Part shown: piece by piece, positions 3,938 to 12,542 of the stretch
Layout of the letters: each line of letters begins with the position of its first letter
Position numbering within the stretch: the first letter of the stretch is position 1
IMG/VR virus record: IMGVR_UViG_3300020202_000060
Location: 1-12,542 of that record
Strand: one strand, 5' to 3'
From: a virus
Length of the DNA stretch: 12,542 nucleotides
Made by a program: the position numbers and the translations under genes
The notes under the pieces: model-generated
The model's input: only the letters and a program-made list of their open reading frames with translations
Told to the model about the DNA's origin: nothing
Database searches by the model: none

Positions 3938-4348
3938 ATGGCTAATGAAGCATCATTAAGAGTAAGAATTGAAGAACCTTTACCTTTTACCGTCGCTGAT
4001 GGAACTGGAATTGAAAAGGGAGCTACATTAAGATTAACTGATCCTAGAACTGCTGCTGCAAATACTGCTAACGGACAAATGGCCGCAGGTATTGCTGCAA
4101 GAGAAAAAGTTGCTTCTGATGGAAGAACTGAATTAGCAGTATACAGACGCGGATGGTTCGACATGAAATGTTCAGGAGCCGTTGTACTTGGTTCTAAATT
4201 AGTATTTGCAGGCGGAGATAATTGCGTAGTACAAGCTACATCAGCACATTCAGGAGCTGCTGTAATTGGAACTGCACTTGAAACTGGAGCAGATAACGAA
4301 GTCATTCTAGTAGACCTTAATATTGGTGGTGGAGGCGTAGGCGGATAA
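3938..4348 (+). CDS. DUF2190-like head decoration/cement protein (by eye)
   Basis: 136 aa, immediately upstream of and overlapping the capsid gene (TAATG). Gly/Ala-rich beta pattern: AAGIAAREKVASDGRTELAVYRRGWFDMK...GSKLVFAGGDN...AVIGTALETGADNEVILVDL. This resembles the small proteins that commonly precede HK97-type capsid genes. Confidence 0.6.
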   Translation: MANEASLRVRIEEPLPFTVADGTGIEKGATLRLTDPRTAAANTANGQMAAGIAAREKVASDGRTELAVYRRGWFDMKCSGAVVLGSKLVFAGGDNCVVQATSAHSGAAVIGTALETGADNEVILVDLNIGGGGVGG

Positions 4349-5211
4349 TGGCAGATCAAGTTGAAATGCAGGATATCAGAGGCCTTGACATTGATAAGGC
4401 AGTTAAAGGTTTCGCATTAACAGAGTATATCTTCAAGAATGCTGTAACAGTTGTTAACACAAGCGCAGATCATATAAGATGGTATCAAGAAACTGCTGCT
4501 GATCTAACTGCAACAGCTCCAATGAGAGTTGCAAACAAAGCTACCTTAGCATTACCTACTGAACTTGAAGTAAGTTGGACAAGAAATACTTCTTATGTTA
4601 AAGAGTACATGGCACAGGGAACTATATCCGAGATGGATATAAAGTCTGCTGACATTGACGTACTTGCTAGAACTCTATTAAGATTAACTAGAGCAGTAGT
4701 TAAACAAGTTGATACAGACATCTACAACGTAGCATCAGAATCTCAAACAGCAGTTAACATTAACTCTGTAACATCCAATGCAGCATGGGATGCAGCATCT
4801 GGACAAGATCCAATAGAAGACATATTGGAAGCTATGCAGAAGATTGAAGAAGCAGATTATGAAACTTCAGGATTAGAAATTTGGTTATCACCTAAAGATA
4901 AGAAGTCACTATTGACTTGGTTGATCTCAACAAAGGGAGCAAGTATACCACAATTTGCATCTGAGAAAGTTGAGAATGGAGTATTAATGACATTCCTAGG
5001 AGCTAAAGTTAGAGTATCTCCAAACGTAGTTGCAGATTCAGCTCTAGTATTAAATCCTAAGAAAGCAGTTACTTACAGACAATTTACTGATACAACCTCA
5101 AAGATAATTGAGAATCCTGGATTGAATAAAATGATTAGAGTATGGGCAAGAGGAATCGCCACTCTAACTGATCCAAAAGCAGTTACTATCATCACTAATA
5201 CTCAGACATAA
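4348..5211 (+). CDS. Major capsid protein, HK97-fold type
   Basis: 287 aa with GGAGG upstream. The C-terminal pattern LEIWLSPKDKKSLL...FLGAKVRVSPNVVADSALVLNPKKAVTY...MIRVWARGIATLTDPKAVTIITN is typical of HK97-like capsid proteins, and the genomic context fits. Confidence 0.75.
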   Translation: MADQVEMQDIRGLDIDKAVKGFALTEYIFKNAVTVVNTSADHIRWYQETAADLTATAPMRVANKATLALPTELEVSWTRNTSYVKEYMAQGTISEMDIKSADIDVLARTLLRLTRAVVKQVDTDIYNVASESQTAVNINSVTSNAAWDAASGQDPIEDILEAMQKIEEADYETSGLEIWLSPKDKKSLLTWLISTKGASIPQFASEKVENGVLMTFLGAKVRVSPNVVADSALVLNPKKAVTYRQFTDTTSKIIENPGLNKMIRVWARGIATLTDPKAVTIITNTQT

Positions 5212-6207: not shown

Positions 6208-6507
6208 TTATTCTTTATACTCACTATCCCAAACTACTCCGGCACAAGTCCAACCGTTAGACGTGTACTGGTCCATCTCTTCTCCTAGTTTTCTCTTCTC
6301 TGTAAAATCTAATTTATAATTTTTAACTTGAATGAATCTGATATGCTTATCTTTAGGATCGATTGCAATAAGATCACAAAATCCATGAGAGCCACCAGTG
6401 CGTAAGACAATCGGCCAACCTGCTTTTAACAAGGTGTTTCTTACTCTGTACTCTTTAGCTCTACCCCTAGTGTAGTTTGTCGCCATGATTCTGTTTGATC
6501 CATCCAA
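6208..6507 (-). CDS. hjc: Hjc-like Holliday-junction resolvase (PD-(D/E)xK nuclease)
   Basis: RGRAKEYRVRNTLLKAGWPIVLRTGGSHGFCDLIAIDPKDKHIRFIQVKN matches the archaeal Hjc layout (G..xE, ...D-L-I-A..., ...x-V-K). The track start at 6507 is TTG; the ATG at 6486 (MATNYTRG...) is the more likely start. Confidence 0.65.
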   Translation of the reverse strand: MDGSNRIMATNYTRGRAKEYRVRNTLLKAGWPIVLRTGGSHGFCDLIAIDPKDKHIRFIQVKNYKLDFTEKRKLGEEMDQYTSNGWTCAGVVWDSEYKE

Positions 6508-7786: not shown

Positions 7787-7920
7787 CTTAATGCTCCTAA
7801 GAAAGATAGTGTCAATGCTAAAGACGCAATTGTCAATACCAACATGTTAATAAGAAGAAAAAGAGTACCAAGATCAAGATCAGGATCATACATGTATTCT
7901 CGTATATGCCAATCCGTCAT
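7783..7920 (-). CDS. 45-aa single-pass membrane protein (not in the ORF track)
   Basis: MTDWHIREYMYDPDLDLGTLFLLINMLVLTIASLALTLSFLGALR. GGGGG sits 7 nt upstream of the ATG, and its stop overlaps the next ATG. Confidence 0.5.
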   Translation of the reverse strand: MTDWHIREYMYDPDLDLGTLFLLINMLVLTIASLALTLSFLGALR

Positions 7921-7952
7921 AGTAAACCCCCATTAGAAGAATAGAAGGAAAA

Positions 7953-7993
7953 CGCCCGAACCGGGAATCGGACCCGGGTCTCCTGCGCGACAG
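7953..7993 (-). other. 3' half of a tRNA-Asp(GUC) gene (anticodon loop to discriminator); candidate attP core
   Basis: The minus strand reads CTGTCGC (loop, anticodon GTC, T33, G37, C38) - GCAGG - AGAC (4-nt variable) - CCGGG TCCGATT CCCGG (T arm) - TTCGGGC - G73. The five bases 5' of the loop (GCCCC) do not pair with GCAGG, so the tRNA similarity stops at the anticodon loop. There is no 5' half and no CCA. Confidence 0.6.
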
Positions 7994-7999
7994 GGGGCA

Positions 8000-8161
8000 T
8001 CATAGATATCTCCCCGGAGCAAGCTTGCCCTTTTTGATTAGTCTTTCAACAATACACTTTGCTATCTCTTTTCTTGAACTATTATCTTCATCTCTTGCTA
8101 ATAGTTTCAAAGCTTTATTGACTTTTATTGGTATAGCAGTCTCCACCCTTACTTTTTTCAT
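8000..8161 (-). CDS. RHH (CopG/Arc/MetJ-like) transcription regulator, 53 aa (not in the ORF track)
   Basis: MKKVRVETAIPIKVNKALKLLARDEDNSSRKEIAKCIVERLIKKGKLAPGRYL shows a clear beta-strand/helix/helix pattern. It is divergent from the integrase, and a TATA box lies 22 nt upstream of its ATG. Confidence 0.7.
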   Translation of the reverse strand: MKKVRVETAIPIKVNKALKLLARDEDNSSRKEIAKCIVERLIKKGKLAPGRYL

Positions 8162-8182: not shown

Positions 8183-8190
8183 TATTTAAA
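8183..8190 (-). promoter_or_regulatory. TATA box TTTAAATA (minus strand) for the RHH/leftward operon; leaderless geometry
   Basis: The 3' edge of the box is 22 nt from the ATG at 8161, and no SD lies between them. Confidence 0.55.
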
Positions 8191-8224: not shown

Positions 8225-8232
8225 TTTATATA
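8225..8232 (+). promoter_or_regulatory. TATA box TTTATATA for the integrase; leaderless geometry
   Basis: The 3' edge of the box is 22 nt from the ATG at 8254, and no SD lies between them. Confidence 0.55.
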
Positions 8233-8253: not shown

Positions 8254-8901
8254 ATGAGTAAGAAAGCCAAGATTGAGAAAAGGCATCTAACTGCTCAAGA
8301 TATCGACGATATATGCAGGACTATACGCACAAGTCGCAGATATTTACCTAACAGAGCAGGAGAGTTTATGAGAGCAAGAGATCAGACAATAATTAAGTTA
8401 TGCAGTCTCTGTGCTCTACGCCCTAGTGAAGCATTGATGTTAAAATGGTCTGATATTGATTTTGATAATAAGCTGATTAATATAGAAGCAGGAACTAATA
8501 AAGAGAATCAGGGCAATAACGCCTTGCTTATTCCTCAAGCATTAGAGATATTATATGAGTATAAACAAGTCTATGATCAATATTTAGCAGCCGAGTTCTT
8601 ATTCCCCTCATTAGTTAGTTTCGAGCCATTAACATTATCTGCATTTGATAAGATATTTCTAAAGATTCAGAAAGAAGCAGGATTGTATAAGGTCCTATGG
8701 TATACTTCAGCAGGTCAACCAATATCATCACACACACCATATGATTTGAGAAAGCACGCTGGTACTAGGTTTTATAGGCATACAAGAGATCCATACAAGA
8801 CAATGAGATTCTTAAGACAAAAGAAGATGACTTCAATAATACCTTATTTACATAGTGAGATCACAGATATTTACACAGACGCAGCACTTGCTTTCTCTTA
8901 A
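8254..8901 (+). CDS. int: Tyrosine recombinase / integrase (short, 215 aa)
   Basis: Box I-like ALRPSEALMLKWSDIDF (Arg). Box II-like HTPYDLRKHAGTRFY (..LR.H). C-terminal IIPYLH supplies the candidate catalytic Tyr. It lies next to a tRNA-fragment attP candidate. Confidence 0.8.
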   Translation: MSKKAKIEKRHLTAQDIDDICRTIRTSRRYLPNRAGEFMRARDQTIIKLCSLCALRPSEALMLKWSDIDFDNKLINIEAGTNKENQGNNALLIPQALEILYEYKQVYDQYLAAEFLFPSLVSFEPLTLSAFDKIFLKIQKEAGLYKVLWYTSAGQPISSHTPYDLRKHAGTRFYRHTRDPYKTMRFLRQKKMTSIIPYLHSEITDIYTDAALAFS

Positions 8902-8934
8902 TGTGTGTGTGCGTGTGTGTGTGCGTGTGTGTGT
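8901..8934. repeat. 34-nt perfectly alternating purine-pyrimidine tract, (GT)n interrupted by two GC
   Basis: ATGTGTGTGTGCGTGTGTGTGTGCGTGTGTGTGT begins at the last base of the integrase stop codon. Confidence 0.9.
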
Positions 8935-9018
8935 CACATTTTTCCCCCCTAAGAACCCCCCTTTCCATGGGAAATATAAGCACCTTGTGCTATACCTATA
9001 TTTCCTATAGAACCTTAA

Positions 9019-9038
9019 CTTACCTACCCTTACCTACC
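9019..9038. repeat. Tandem 10-bp repeat CTTACCTACC x2 within a C-rich, G-poor stretch
   Basis: Read directly. Confidence 0.85.
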
Positions 9039-9054
9039 TTGTCTTACTACACTA

Positions 9055-9072
9055 ACACACACATACACACAC
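9055..9072. repeat. 18-nt alternating tract ACACACACATACACACAC, an imperfect inverted partner of the 8901-8934 (GT) tract
   Basis: Its reverse complement is GT-rich, and the two tracts bracket about 120 bp. Confidence 0.85.
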
Positions 9073-9211
9073 TCACTTGATCGGAGTTCAGATATTTACG
9101 TACACCTATGCAGTCCTTGCCTGCTAATGGGTTTTGTGTATATCACCGCTTCGTTCGCTTCGCTCACTCCGCTAACGTCCCCCCCCGTCGTAGCTTGAAA
9201 AGCTCGTATAG

Positions 9212-9238
9212 CTAAGTTAATACCTTGTATTAACTTAG
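9212..9238. repeat. Perfect 11-bp inverted repeat CTAAGTTAATA-ccttg-TATTAACTTAG
   Basis: Arms at 9212-9222 and 9228-9238 are exact reverse complements. Candidate operator or hairpin. Confidence 0.85.
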
Positions 9239-9426
9239 GATAGTAGCGTTCAACGTACGTACGTAGTGTAGTTAGCATAGTAATCTAAAGAACGAAGCCG
9301 TAAGGCTGAGTTAGTTAGTAGTAATAGCATAGTACGTATGTAGTGCAACACGTCAACGTGGGGCAATATAACGTCATTTAGAGCGATAGTTGAAGCGTTT
9401 GTACTTTTCTTGGGTTATCTCAGCAG

Positions 9427-9474
9427 AAAAATTTTTATTATTTTTTATTTTTAAAAAAAAGAAAAAAATATATA
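9427..9474 (+). promoter_or_regulatory. 48-nt block that is A/T apart from one G, ending in the TATA box AAATATATA (9466-9474)
   Basis: The box 3' edge is 22 nt from the ATG at 9496. The block could also act as a DNA-unwinding element. Confidence 0.55.
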
Positions 9475-9684
9475 GTGTATCATCTTTACTACCCTATGAG
9501 CTTAAGCGATAAGATTGAAATTTCCCTTTCAGATTCCTATAATAATCGACTAAAGGTTGAAGATGTTAAAGAAGCTGTAAATGAATTGAAAGAGAAAGTT
9601 AGTTTATTTGAAAACCTCAACGGTGGACAAATGGTTCTAAGATGGATAGACGAAATATTCGGAGATAAACTAAGTGGAAGTTGA
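9475..9684 (+). CDS. Small acidic hypothetical protein; true start probably the ATG at 9496 (62 aa)
   Basis: The track start at 9475 is a GTG inside the promoter. MSLSDKIEISL... begins at 9496 in leaderless geometry. It is the first gene of the terminase operon; a small-terminase role is only a positional guess. Confidence 0.6.
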   Translation: MYHLYYPMSLSDKIEISLSDSYNNRLKVEDVKEAVNELKEKVSLFENLNGGQMVLRWIDEIFGDKLSGS

Positions 9685-9945: not shown

Positions 9946-11298
9946 TTGATTTCTTGGAGAAGAATGATAGTCCTAGATGATTGGCAAAAAGAAGTTTTGA
10001 GTTATGATAAAGATCTTCTATTGTGCACTGGCCGTAGAGTTGGTAAGACGTACATACTAGCGAGAAAGGCGTGCGAAGAGATGGTGAATAAACCCAATAC
10101 GCCAGTCATTGTTGTATCATTAACCGAAGATCAAGCGCAACTGATTATTTCTATGGCTCTTAATTACTTACAAGATCATTACCCGAAGATGATTGCAAAG
10201 GGGCAGAACAAACCAACACAGAAAACCATCACACTAACAAACAAGTCGAAGATGATATCGCGCCCTGTTGGAAATACTGGAGATGGAGCGAGAGGATTTG
10301 AAGGAGGAATCTTGATAGTGGATGAGGCTTCCAGAATGCCCCGTTCGTTTTGGATTGCTGGAAAGCCTGTACTGCTAACGACAAACGGACGCATATGGAT
10401 GGCATCAACACCGTTTGGAAAGCAGGGTTACTTCTGGGAGAGATTCGACGAAGCATATAACAAGAAGAGTCCTAGTGCGAGATTCAAAGTATTCTATATA
10501 TCAACAGAGGAAGTAATGAAGAACAGACCAATAAGTGATAGTTGGACGGAGGAACAGAGAGAGGGAGCATTGAGAATACTTGATGAAGATCGAAAGGAGA
10601 TGTCGGAGATCGAATACGGACAAGAGTATCTCGGATTGTTCCTAGACGAGTTAAGACAGTTCTTCCCTGATGAATTAATTGACAAGTGTTGTATACTACA
10701 GAGAAACCCTAATATGACGGGTGATAAGTTCTTAGGGGTTGACATTGCGAGAATGGGAGATGATGAGAGTACGTTTGAAGTTATTAACAAGCTAGATGGG
10801 AAATACTATCATGTAGAATCGCAGATAACAAAGAAGACATATACAACGCAGACAGAGCAGAAGATCATAGAGCTTGATAAGATGTGGAACTTTGTTAAGA
10901 TTGGAATTGACGCGGGGTCTGGATCGCTAGGAGTTGGCATATACGATCATCTGTTACAATCAAACATTAAGAGAAAAATTGAAGCTATGAACAACAGAGC
11001 AATAGCACAGGACAGAGATGGAAAGAAGAAAGTGACTTTACAGAAAGAAGATTACTATGATAACTTACGAGGTATGATGGAACGTGGAGAGATCAAGCTA
11101 TTAGATGATGATAATGTCAAGGCCAGTCTTAGATCTGTACAGTGGGAGTTTACTAATACAGAGGAAGATGTGCAAGAAGGAAAGATCTCTAAAGTGAGGA
11201 TATTTGGTAAGTATACCCACGTAGCCGAAGGTATAATCAGAGCTGCATGGCTTGCGAGAAAAGCGAAGAATTTAAATTTCCAGATATATTACGTATAA
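9946..11298 (+). CDS. terL: Terminase large subunit
   Basis: Walker A-like CTGRRVGKTY, Walker B ILIVDEAS, coupling motif MASTP, and nuclease-domain acidic motifs GVDIARMGDDESTF and IGIDAGSGS. The track start is TTG; the ATG at 9964 (MIVLDDWQKEVL) with GGAGA upstream is more likely. Confidence 0.85.
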   Translation: MISWRRMIVLDDWQKEVLSYDKDLLLCTGRRVGKTYILARKACEEMVNKPNTPVIVVSLTEDQAQLIISMALNYLQDHYPKMIAKGQNKPTQKTITLTNKSKMISRPVGNTGDGARGFEGGILIVDEASRMPRSFWIAGKPVLLTTNGRIWMASTPFGKQGYFWERFDEAYNKKSPSARFKVFYISTEEVMKNRPISDSWTEEQREGALRILDEDRKEMSEIEYGQEYLGLFLDELRQFFPDELIDKCCILQRNPNMTGDKFLGVDIARMGDDESTFEVINKLDGKYYHVESQITKKTYTTQTEQKIIELDKMWNFVKIGIDAGSGSLGVGIYDHLLQSNIKRKIEAMNNRAIAQDRDGKKKVTLQKEDYYDNLRGMMERGEIKLLDDDNVKASLRSVQWEFTNTEEDVQEGKISKVRIFGKYTHVAEGIIRAAWLARKAKNLNFQIYYV

Positions 11299-11811: not shown

Positions 11812-12422
11812 TGGCACTCCAAACAAAGTTTAGGCGATCACCTGAAAAGGCCATAGCCTCTTATTCTTATTTTGATATTGCAGAAGGTAGCGGCTTAATT
11901 GAGTTTCTCCCATTTCTAACAACTAGTGATGGCAGTAATCTAAGCGGAGCCATGACAATTAATACAAGTGTATATGGTGCAAGTTCAGGGGCAGCAAACT
12001 TAACAGCAACTAACAAAGACTTTGATGTAGTTTTCAACTTACCTAAGATTATAGAGGGAAATGCATTTTGTATAACTCCGATAAGGATCCAAGGAACCGG
12101 AAACGGCAAGGTTTATGCAACTATTAAACACGTGGATTTAAACGGAGTTGAAACAACAATCGGAGCACAAGCTACATCCGAATCTGTGATTGGTGGCGGT
12201 GGCGGTGTTAGTGCTGATAAAAAAGTAATCACAAAGTTCACGATTGCAAGAAAGAAATTTAAGAAAGGAGAGAAGTTAAGACTTAATCTTTCAGGAGCTT
12301 CAAGCGGAAGTGTGGAGAAAGCAGATATTGGACTATCACCAGTTAATACTCAATTATCGACGGTATTTGCAACTAATGGGAGCAGATCAAGCCTATTTAT
12401 CCCATTCAGAAACGAGATATAA
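11811..12422 (+). CDS. Hypothetical beta-rich virion protein (203 aa)
   Basis: TAATG overlap with the upstream ORF. Ser/Thr/Gly/Asn-rich beta-type composition with a GGGGG linker. It ends inside the terminal repeat and is followed by the T5-containing tandem repeats. Confidence 0.6.
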   Translation: MALQTKFRRSPEKAIASYSYFDIAEGSGLIEFLPFLTTSDGSNLSGAMTINTSVYGASSGAANLTATNKDFDVVFNLPKIIEGNAFCITPIRIQGTGNGKVYATIKHVDLNGVETTIGAQATSESVIGGGGGVSADKKVITKFTIARKKFKKGEKLRLNLSGASSGSVEKADIGLSPVNTQLSTVFATNGSRSSLFIPFRNEI

Positions 12423-12542
12423 TTAAACGAACCCTTTTTAAATGGGCATTAAAACGAACCCTTTTTAAACCCCCTCCTTCACTTGGATAAAATATAAATA
12501 CGCTACTAGTTTCTTAGCATCGCTTAAAGGTTTTAAGCGTAA
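12416..12542. repeat. Terminal direct repeat, right copy (identical to 1-127)
   Basis: Same 127-nt string as 1-127. The stop codon of the 203-aa ORF (12420-12422) lies inside it. Confidence 0.95.

Follow-up and report, generated by a model that had tools for sequence, protein, structure and literature searches.

A putative ORB-type replication origin with long inverted GT and AC arms in a 12.4-kb head-tailed virus

Introduction

Why does a virus whose genome is among the smallest sizes of head-tailed viruses carry two long, mutually inverted dinucleotide tracts directly behind its integrase gene? The locus lies in the IMG/VR virus record IMGVR_UViG_3300020202_000060, which was analyzed here over its whole length of 12,542 nucleotides (nt; hereafter, the window). 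In this DNA, an alternating GT tract starts at the last base of the stop codon of a tyrosine recombinase gene (int), and an AC tract follows more than 100 nt downstream; the two tracts and the segment enclosed by them are referred to here as the bracket. We consider that the bracket is most likely a replication origin rather than an element that serves the integrase. Specifically, positions 8901–9076 may be the core of an origin recognition box (ORB)-type origin that uses the Orc1/Cdc6 protein of the host, in which the GT and AC tracts would form the outer arms, and we assign a probability of roughly 55% to this reading, which is drawn from sequence comparison. The bracket can also be read as an attachment site (attP) of the integrase, an invertible switch, a structured noncoding RNA, or a packaging site, and these four readings were weaker than the origin reading.

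Results

Structure of the bracket

The elements of the bracket and its left border are as follows (positions in the window).

8899–8901: stop codon TAA of int
8902–8934: left outer arm, a (TG)16.5-type tract (TRF: period 2, 16.5 copies, 87% matches)
8939–8943, plus strand: T5 run, candidate archaeal oligo-T terminator for int
8944–8949 and 8956–8961, minus strand: two C6 runs, i.e., G-strings on the minus strand, directly 3′ of ORB-a
8962–8975, plus strand: ORB-a, mini-ORB-like dyad TTTCCATGGGAAAT, with the core TTCC-N4-GAA at 8963–8973
8970–9005: predicted inner hairpin or palindrome GGAAATATA-AGCAC-ctt-GTGCT-(atacc)-TATATTTCC, centered at ~8985 (DNA and RNA folds)
8994–9013, plus strand: ORB-b, ACCTATAT-TTCCTATAGAAC, with its core at 9002–9012; fits the family consensus ACCTWCRT-TTCCTATGGAAC
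9019–9038, plus strand: tandem repeat CTTACCTACC × 2 (TRF, 100%)
9049–9076: right outer arm, the AC-type tract ACACTAACACACACATACACACACTCAC, with the core ACACACACATACACACAC at 9055–9072

Oligo-T runs act as transcription terminators in archaea, and the T5 run behind int is a candidate of this kind. The first-pass annotation of this DNA had described the two tracts, the C6 runs, a near-palindrome centered on CCATGG, the tandem repeat, and the G-poor interior (9 G in the 114 nt of 8935–9048, or 8%, vs. 21% G genome-wide), and each of these was found where it had been placed. What had been missed was the identity of the near-palindrome and the C6 runs, which match archaeal mini-ORB dyads and G-strings.

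CCATGG (8965–8970) lies inside TTTCCATGGGAAAT, and the window reads CCCCCC-TAAGAA-CCCCCC-TTTCCATGGGAAAT at this place. The mini-ORB of Pyrococcus is TTCCACTGGAA, and its ORB1 and ORB2 carry a C/G-string (Matsunaga et al., 2007; PMC1904270); in P. furiosus, ORB1 is AAAACCCCCCAGAGTTTCATTTCCACTGGAACC and the 13-bp mini-ORB is TTCCAGTGGAACT, with perfectly conserved TTCC and GAA (PMC1904270). The concept of the G-string in ORB-type origins is also documented (PMC1868953; PMC4010727). ORB-a agrees with the P. furiosus mini-ORB TTTCCACTGGAA at 10 of 12 positions, and the invariant TTCC and GAA are equally spaced in both.

We built a weight matrix (consensus AACCTACGTTTCCACTGGAAACGT) from 62 sites taken from relatives of the virus alone. 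A metagenome scan yielded 80 relatives, with 42–63% identity in the large terminase (TerL); relatives are labeled with L-numbers below. With this matrix, ORB-a scored 13.4 bits on the plus strand and 11.6 bits on the minus strand (8954–8982), and ORB-b scored 14.8 and 13.6 bits, respectively (8993–9021). No other site of the 12.4-kb genome exceeded 8 bits, and both dyads are located within the bracket. Because of the match to the Pyrococcus motif, the enrichment across the family described below, and the scores of the relatives-only matrix, we interpret the interior as mini-ORB dyads with G-strings: judged by its sequence, the CCATGG near-palindrome is a mini-ORB-like dyad, and the C6 runs are putative G-strings of the other strand. 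The ACCTAC within the tandem repeat at 9019–9038 is similar to the sequence that flanks the family dyad on its 5′ side. An open reading frame (ORF) of 59 amino acids (aa) at 8901–9080 on the plus strand, whose ATG overlaps the int stop codon (TAATG) and which begins MCVCACVCACVCV… (MCVCACVC…), was rejected as spurious, with neither a family match nor promoter geometry.

Purines and pyrimidines alternate strictly over 34 nt (8901–8934), and such a run cannot have arisen by chance in 12 kb. The TG array at 8902–8934 can also be read as 2.8 perfect copies of the 12-mer TGTGTGTGTGCG (TRF, 100%). The first-pass annotation had proposed a Z-prone alternating tract and an imperfect inverse that could form a large stem, and the computed folds agree, with the inverse 114–120 nt away and a stable predicted stem. 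The uninterrupted 34-nt alternation is long enough for a B-to-Z transition, and the AC arm is interrupted. The arms may pair in two ways: 8902–8928 with 9049–9075 (27 nt, 81% complementary) or 8913–8934 with 9055–9076 (22 nt, 86% complementary, 120 nt between them). The predicted single-strand DNA fold of the region had an energy of −23 kcal/mol (z = −3.95), which was matched by none of the shuffled sequences. The whole forms a nested palindrome of ~175 bp, in which the center of the bracket (8991.5), the center of the ORB pair (8987.5), and the loop of the inner hairpin (~8985) nearly coincide.

Identical tracts, with the same length and orientation, were found in five further contigs from four other assemblies.

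Logan SRR7003765: circular contig of 12,442 nt whose ends lie within the GT tract and overlap by 27 nt
ENA ERZ27257313: 12,556 nt, i.e., 12,415 nt plus a 141-nt overlap
ENA ERZ27257319: 4,210 nt, with one single-nucleotide polymorphism (SNP)
JGI 3300021062: two contigs, one of them with one SNP

The Logan contig spans the bracket interior through its two ends, L003 and L090. These contigs were built with different k-mer sizes, so the tracts are not an assembler-specific artifact; an assembly or chimera artifact had been named by the first-pass annotation as a possible refutation. It had also suggested that the tracts vary in length by slippage. When the lengths and orientations of the tracts were compared between the consensus sequences of the contigs, the length was constant in the window and all five further contigs, including the two that carry SNPs, and the (TG)6.5 tract was likewise identical in L057 and L058, which differ by SNPs. 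At the consensus level, the near-identical genomes therefore do not have the repeat-number polymorphism expected of a slippage contingency locus.

Comparison across the virus family

We compared the 1.3 kb upstream of TerL (hereafter, the upstream zone) with the rest of the genomes. The dyad core TTCC-N4-GAA occurred at 1.49/kb in the upstream zone vs. 0.15/kb elsewhere, runs of six or more C at 0.85/kb vs. 0.02/kb, and runs of six or more G at 0.72/kb vs. 0.14/kb. TTCC-N3-GGAA was observed 66 times in the upstream zone, compared with 2.3 ± 1.9 times in dinucleotide-preserving shuffles. At least 14 relatives have clusters of two to four dyads (e.g., TTTCCTATGGAAC, TTTCCAGTGGAAA, and TTTCCACAGGAAAC), usually with ACCTWCRT as the flank, and the family dyad consensus, AACCTACGT-TTCCACTGGAAAC, contains the P. 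furiosus mini-ORB TTTCCACTGGAA. A G-string directly after the dyad is also present in L063 and L012, and in L099 a G8 run leads directly into ACACACATACACAT, as on the minus strand of the window.

The dinucleotide tracts were concentrated in the same zone. A scoring scan of ~460 kb of family DNA detected 22 imperfect dinucleotide tracts, and all of them were located 16–1,192 nt upstream of TerL, although their types differed between relatives (GT, AC, AG, or AT). Perfect tracts of (TG)≥4 numbered 17 in the zone vs. one elsewhere. TG/AC pairs with 40–260 nt between them were found at seven independent loci, all in the zone, namely the window and six relatives without an integrase (L022, L034, L071, L078, L085, and L098). 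In L098, the pair consists of (AC)4.5 and (TG)4 with 71 nt between them, directly after the first leftward gene. In the zone of many other relatives there are inverted-repeat brackets with arms of 12–37 nt, spacers of 70–150 nt, and a central hairpin; the arms of L084 include ORB-like dyads, in inverted orientation. Several relatives carry an AC or TG tract within or beside a promoter: it either separates the TATA box from the ATG or immediately precedes the TATA box.

The first-pass annotation had called for a check of conservation in related genomes, and the outcome is divided: TG/AC pairs recur in the upstream zone of six relatives, but their sequence, length, and order are not conserved. 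Its implied link of the segment to int or to a ribbon-helix-helix (RHH) protein is not supported, because int was not found in any of the 80 relatives, yet TG/AC pairs and brackets recur there. An alignment of nine brackets with MAFFT and RNAalifold produced no consensus structure, and we therefore treat the brackets of the relatives as analogous and not as proven homologs. Mapping of ORF-free gaps was too noisy to use, because low-complexity sequence yields spurious ORFs.

Two further structures were seen in relatives. Between the TG and AC arms of L085 (1060–1112) there is a perfect homopyrimidine mirror repeat, TTTTCTCTCTCTTTCTTTCTTTT-gtattac-TTTTCTTTCTTTCTCTCTCTTTT, which by its sequence is a textbook H-DNA (triplex) motif. 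Hairpins with C6–C7 loops (e.g., ggaaaatagggttttgCCCCCCtcaaaaccctattttcc) are present at ~420–520 in L014 and ~495–530 in L099, and two of those in L014 lie between ORB-like dyads.

Comparison with known origins

The origins of Haloferax volcanii were mapped genetically by Norais et al. (2007; PMC1868953), and one of them, ori-pHV1/4, is an autonomously replicating sequence (ARS) origin. The authors noted “long GT-stretches” after both of the ORBs that flank its duplex unwinding element (DUE), and proposed that these stretches act in initiator specificity or DNA bending (PMC1868953). We read the sequence NC_013968 directly and found (AC)6 at 84553–84564 and (GT)6 at 84763–84774, with 198 nt between them. 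This pair encloses ORB-type repeats, two G5 strings, and an AT-rich core, and adjoins an orc-type ATPase gene. Thus, ori-pHV1/4 resembles the bracket in that it is intergenic, contains ORB-type repeats and G-strings, and is bracketed by inverted dinucleotide tracts. Unlike the bracket, it is part of a cellular replicon that has its own orc gene next to the origin. The tracts at ori-pHV1/4 are 12 nt long (vs. 33 and 28 nt in the virus) with a spacer of 198 nt (vs. 114 nt), their order is AC..GT (vs. TG..AC), and the ORBs are of another type (CACTCGACAC…GGTGGTGT).

The oriC of Pyrococcus and the bracket have the TTTCC-N4-GGAA dyad in common, in which TTCC and GAA are invariant and which has a C/G-string on the same side in both; several copies of the dyad are present in one intergenic region. 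In Pyrococcus, however, the DUE is flanked by ORB1 and ORB2 in inverted orientation, next to cdc6/orc1, whereas the copies in the virus have the same polarity and no initiator gene is present. Among archaeal viruses, Aeropyrum globular virus 1 (bioRxiv 10.1101/2021.04.21.440749) also has an integrase and a circular genome, and the putative origin lies between genes and consists of an inverted repeat (23–26 nt) with a 93-nt spacer at the switch of the GC skew. Its authors found no ORBs, and its arms are of complex sequence, not dinucleotide tracts.

Genome, integrase, and probable host

Positions 1–127 of the window are identical to positions 12416–12542, and because of this exact 127-nt terminal overlap the window is interpreted as a circular genome of 12,415 bp. 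The main genes and sites are listed below.

144–1247: portal
4348–5211: HK97-type capsid protein
7952–7999, minus strand: GC-rich island, ~70% GC vs. 38% GC in the genome, containing CCGGGTCCGATTCCCGG and TTCGGGCG
8183–8190, minus strand: TATA-like octamer, with its ATG at 8161
8225–8232: int promoter TTTATATA, followed by 21 nt and the ATG at 8254
8254–8901, plus strand: int, tyrosine recombinase of 215 aa, catalytic domain only (Pfam PF00589, E = 1e-17)
8902–9495: noncoding region of 595 nt, preceding the operon of a small ORF and TerL
9946–11298: TerL

A TerL profile search identified 1,628 homologs at E ≤ 1e-30; the longest contigs among them cluster at 11–13 kb, and none of the homologs was in a large contig. 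The virus belongs to a large, undescribed family of ~12-kb head-tailed viruses with promoters of the archaeal leaderless type. Two of the 80 relatives are circular (L016 and L052). A family member of 11,990 nt (L098; GCA_017973815.1, JAEMOJ010000355.1) is binned in a public metagenome-assembled genome. Against GenBank phages, the whole window (megablast) and the major capsid protein (tblastn) had no match, and TerL had matches at only ~25% identity; the best annotated TerL matches were archaeal tailed viruses.

The best NCBIfam match of int was archaeal XerA (positions 88–258 of 263, E = 4.7e-12), and a weak co-linear match to the FimB/E-type invertase PRK09870 was also obtained (E = 9.6e-5; 22 bits vs. 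a cut-off of 221). A homolog search with int returned int alone, a PDB search gave no match, and scans of IMG/VR found nothing for int, nor for a 26-mer of the bracket interior. In a genome collection, int had three weak bacterial matches (31–35% over ~80 aa). We conclude that int is a lineage-specific neighbor and not part of the origin element.

The arrangement of a TATA-like octamer, 21 nt, and an ATG is common to int, a 53-aa minus-strand ORF, and a 62-aa ORF, and the same layout is found at the first genes of at least eight relatives (including L023, L034, L058, L067, L071, L078, and L085). Judging from the sequence, this geometry implies archaeal leaderless transcripts. Sigma-70 promoters were not enriched (9 observed vs. 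5.4 ± 2.1 expected). Because of the leaderless promoter geometry, the archaeal XerA as the nearest match of int, the archaeal TerL matches, and the lack of sigma-70 enrichment, an archaeal host is probable.

The 12.4-kb genome has no ORF of initiator size or of an initiator family; the larger ORFs encode the portal, capsid, terminase, and integrase, or have no match to an initiator family. A label of “Hjc-like” (small Hjc/PD-(D/E)xK nuclease), given by eye to the minus-strand ORF at 6208–6507, was dropped because Pfam, NCBIfam, and PDB searches did not support it. ORFs resembling it adjoin TerL in L002, L072, L058, and L078.

Remaining control region

Downstream of the AC arm, the control region contains the following elements.

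9077–9495: remaining noncoding control region
9147–9172: CGCTTCG-type repeat
9179–9186: C8 run
9192–9204: hairpin
9211–9237: hairpin with a perfect 11-bp stem, CTAAGTTAATA…TATTAACTTAG
9248–9375: CAACGT-type repeats
~9410–9437: family-conserved motif CTTGGGTTATCTCAGCAGAAAAATTTTT
9425–9476: AT-richest tract (96% AT)
9467–9474: late promoter AATATATA, followed by 21 nt and the ATG at 9496

The repeat types of 9147–9375 are shared in kind by relatives, and L015 has at least seven copies of CAACGT-type iterons. The conserved motif, of the form (T)TGGGCTATCCCC…AGAAAWTTTTT, immediately precedes the AT-rich late promoter and is kept across distant relatives; counterparts of the motif at ~9410–9437 were found in L009, L015, L016, L023, L025, L028, L084, and L098.

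Discussion

The features of ORB-type origins that are found in this virus are a dyad with TTCC and GAA at a fixed spacing, a G-string, several clustered ORBs, and GT/AC stretches like those reported beside the ORBs of ori-pHV1/4; an adjacent orc1/cdc6 gene is not present in the 12.4-kb genome. Since the genome encodes no initiator, the origin would have to borrow the Orc1/Cdc6 of the host, and because no such gene adjoins it, our claim is that the bracket works like an ORB-type origin and uses a host initiator, not that it is a replicator–initiator pair. The proposed mechanism is as follows. Host Orc1/Cdc6 would bind the dyads and G-strings, and the bound protein would under-wind the DNA and load MCM. 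The TG and AC arms, which are flexible, Z-prone, and mutually complementary, may aid this process by bending, by absorbing torsional stress, or by pairing with each other once the strands have separated. The integrase gene would simply adjoin the left arm.

Several observations weigh against this interpretation. First, the dyad is present in only ~17 of the ~45 relatives with enough upstream sequence, and the closest relatives (L009/L094 and L001) carry other iterons, of the ATCGACGATAAAT type. Second, the long TG/AC arms vary among relatives in sequence, length, and order, and both TG..AC and AC..TG are found. Third, the layout departs from that of the known origins: the two near-palindromic dyads, 39 nt apart, both score slightly better on the same (plus) strand, which is unlike the classic inverted ORBs that flank an AT-rich DUE, and a clear DUE is not seen between them; the 28-nt spacer is 68% AT, and the AT-richest tract is ~400 nt from the dyads. 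The G-strings are also arranged differently. In ori-pHV1/4, they are the inner elements, next to a clear AT-rich DUE, whereas they are the outer elements in the virus; in Pyrococcus, the gap between string and dyad is ~9 nt, whereas one string of the virus is adjacent to the dyad and the second is 6 nt further away. Additionally, the minimum of the cumulative GC skew at ~9150–9300, which had been considered as evidence for an origin, was dropped as independent evidence because it is confounded by the gene orientation and by the G-poor segment itself.

The best-surviving alternative concerns the arms alone: they may be neutral, microsatellite-like tracts produced by slippage in a weakly constrained noncoding region, and the enclosed elements would work without them. 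The variation of tract type (GT, AC, AG, or AT), length, order, and position between relatives fits this view, as do the lack of GT tracts in the closest relatives and the complementarity of only 81–86% between the arms of the window. However, the tracts are confined to one zone of every genome, perfect (TG)≥4 tracts number 17 there vs. one elsewhere, TG and AC tracts recur as pairs at 40–260 nt in seven loci and also at a mapped cellular origin, and the tract length is stable across copies that differ by SNPs. We therefore regard the neutral explanation as rather unlikely.

It is improbable that the dyads and arms constitute a recognition or cleavage site (cos or pac) for packaging by the downstream terminase. 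The zone does lie upstream of the TerL operon in every relative, and many contigs begin in it; within one subclade, the dyad (TT)CCATCGGAA is the shared starting point of several contigs. The first bases of L044, L061, L079, and L037 are this dyad at the edge of the ORB cluster (L086 starts nearby), and the shared start may reflect either an assembly-breaking repeat or true genome ends. Inverted or simple repeats explain the contig breaks equally well, however, and three genomes (the window, L016, and L052) form circular assemblies in which the zone is uninterrupted. Furthermore, the dyad with its G-string matches the cellular Orc1/Cdc6 site and not any known terminase site, and the dyads of the window are ~480 nt upstream of the operon promoter.

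The bracket begins with the last base of the int stop codon, which is the classic position for an attP; the GT/AC arms or the interior would then be the core or arm binding sites of the integrase. An attP shares its sequence with an attB of the host, and the attB is commonly the 3′ end of a tRNA gene. In addition, the 11-mer CAGATATTTAC occurs at 8864–8874, in the 3′ end of int, and at 9089–9099, and so flanks the bracket; its two copies are 225 nt apart, and the second is 12 nt after the AC arm. We estimate the chance expectation of such an 11-mer repeat at ~4%. Nevertheless, an attP at this place is very improbable: int is confined to this lineage, whereas the dyads, C/G runs, and TG/AC brackets are present in relatives without int, and no tRNA-like sequence was found in 8850–9520. 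A better candidate is the GC-rich island at 7952–7999, located 270 nt upstream of int in the gap between two small minus-strand ORFs; it resembles the T-arm and 3′ acceptor strand of a tRNA, and on the basis of this resemblance it may be regarded as a candidate attP. ARAGORN (also with relaxed thresholds) and Rfam made no tRNA call in 7900–8050, where only a T-arm-like 17-mer was matched (E = 8), and the tRNA-like 26-mer of the island had no exact match in IMG/VR.

We give little credence to a structured noncoding RNA of ~175 nt closed by a stem of the GU and AC tracts. The predicted RNA folds are strong (−52 kcal/mol, z = −7.1, for the plus strand and −61 kcal/mol, z = −5.7, for the minus strand), and relatives show a closing stem with a central hairpin. 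However, no Rfam 15 family matched; the only hit, mir-466, scored 25.9–28.7 bits against a threshold of 85, a sub-threshold match explained by the TG/CA hairpin. No promoter of the family geometry precedes the bracket, and the failure of MAFFT and RNAalifold to find a consensus structure also speaks against a conserved RNA. The arms of the relatives are perfect Watson–Crick repeats without G-U pairs, which indicates a constraint at the DNA level.

A switch of the fimS type, in which the recombinase flips the 114 bp enclosed by the inverted GT and AC repeats, is highly improbable. The fimS of Escherichia coli is a short segment flanked by 9-bp inverted repeats, adjoined by the genes of the ~200-aa recombinases FimB and FimE. 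The virus likewise has inverted repeats around a short segment beside a small tyrosine recombinase: the enzyme has 215 aa, lacks a core-binding domain, and has the weak co-linear FimB/E-type match, the end of its gene falls exactly at the left inverted repeat, comparable to the position of fimE next to fimS, and TATA-like boxes are present on both strands of the interior. However, the arms are ~30-nt microsatellites rather than 9-bp repeats, a single orientation was found in the five consensus sequences that cover the interior (the window and four of the further contigs), analogous brackets occur in genomes without any recombinase, the invertase match (22 bits) is far below the cut-off of 221, and the interior is itself nearly symmetric. 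We give almost no credence to a combined form, in which the FimB/E-sized recombinase inverts the 114-bp origin core between the arms and so flips the polarity of the ORBs and G-strings; if true, the recombinase would operate the origin as a switch that toggles the virus from one replication mode to another, or from a carrier state to lytic growth.

We therefore return to the ORB-type origin, in which the new element would be an origin of this type on a minimal virus, with unusually long GT/AC arms. The occurrence of GT/AC tracts beside ORBs both here and at ori-pHV1/4 turns a passing remark of 2007 into a testable hypothesis, namely that archaeal origins may make functional use of accessory dinucleotide arms that are flexible or Z-prone. 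If the origin reading is correct, a widespread, undescribed family of ~12-kb head-tailed viruses would replicate via canonical cellular ORB and G-string sites, and this compact origin mimicry would point to an archaeal host for viruses that carry no other host signal.

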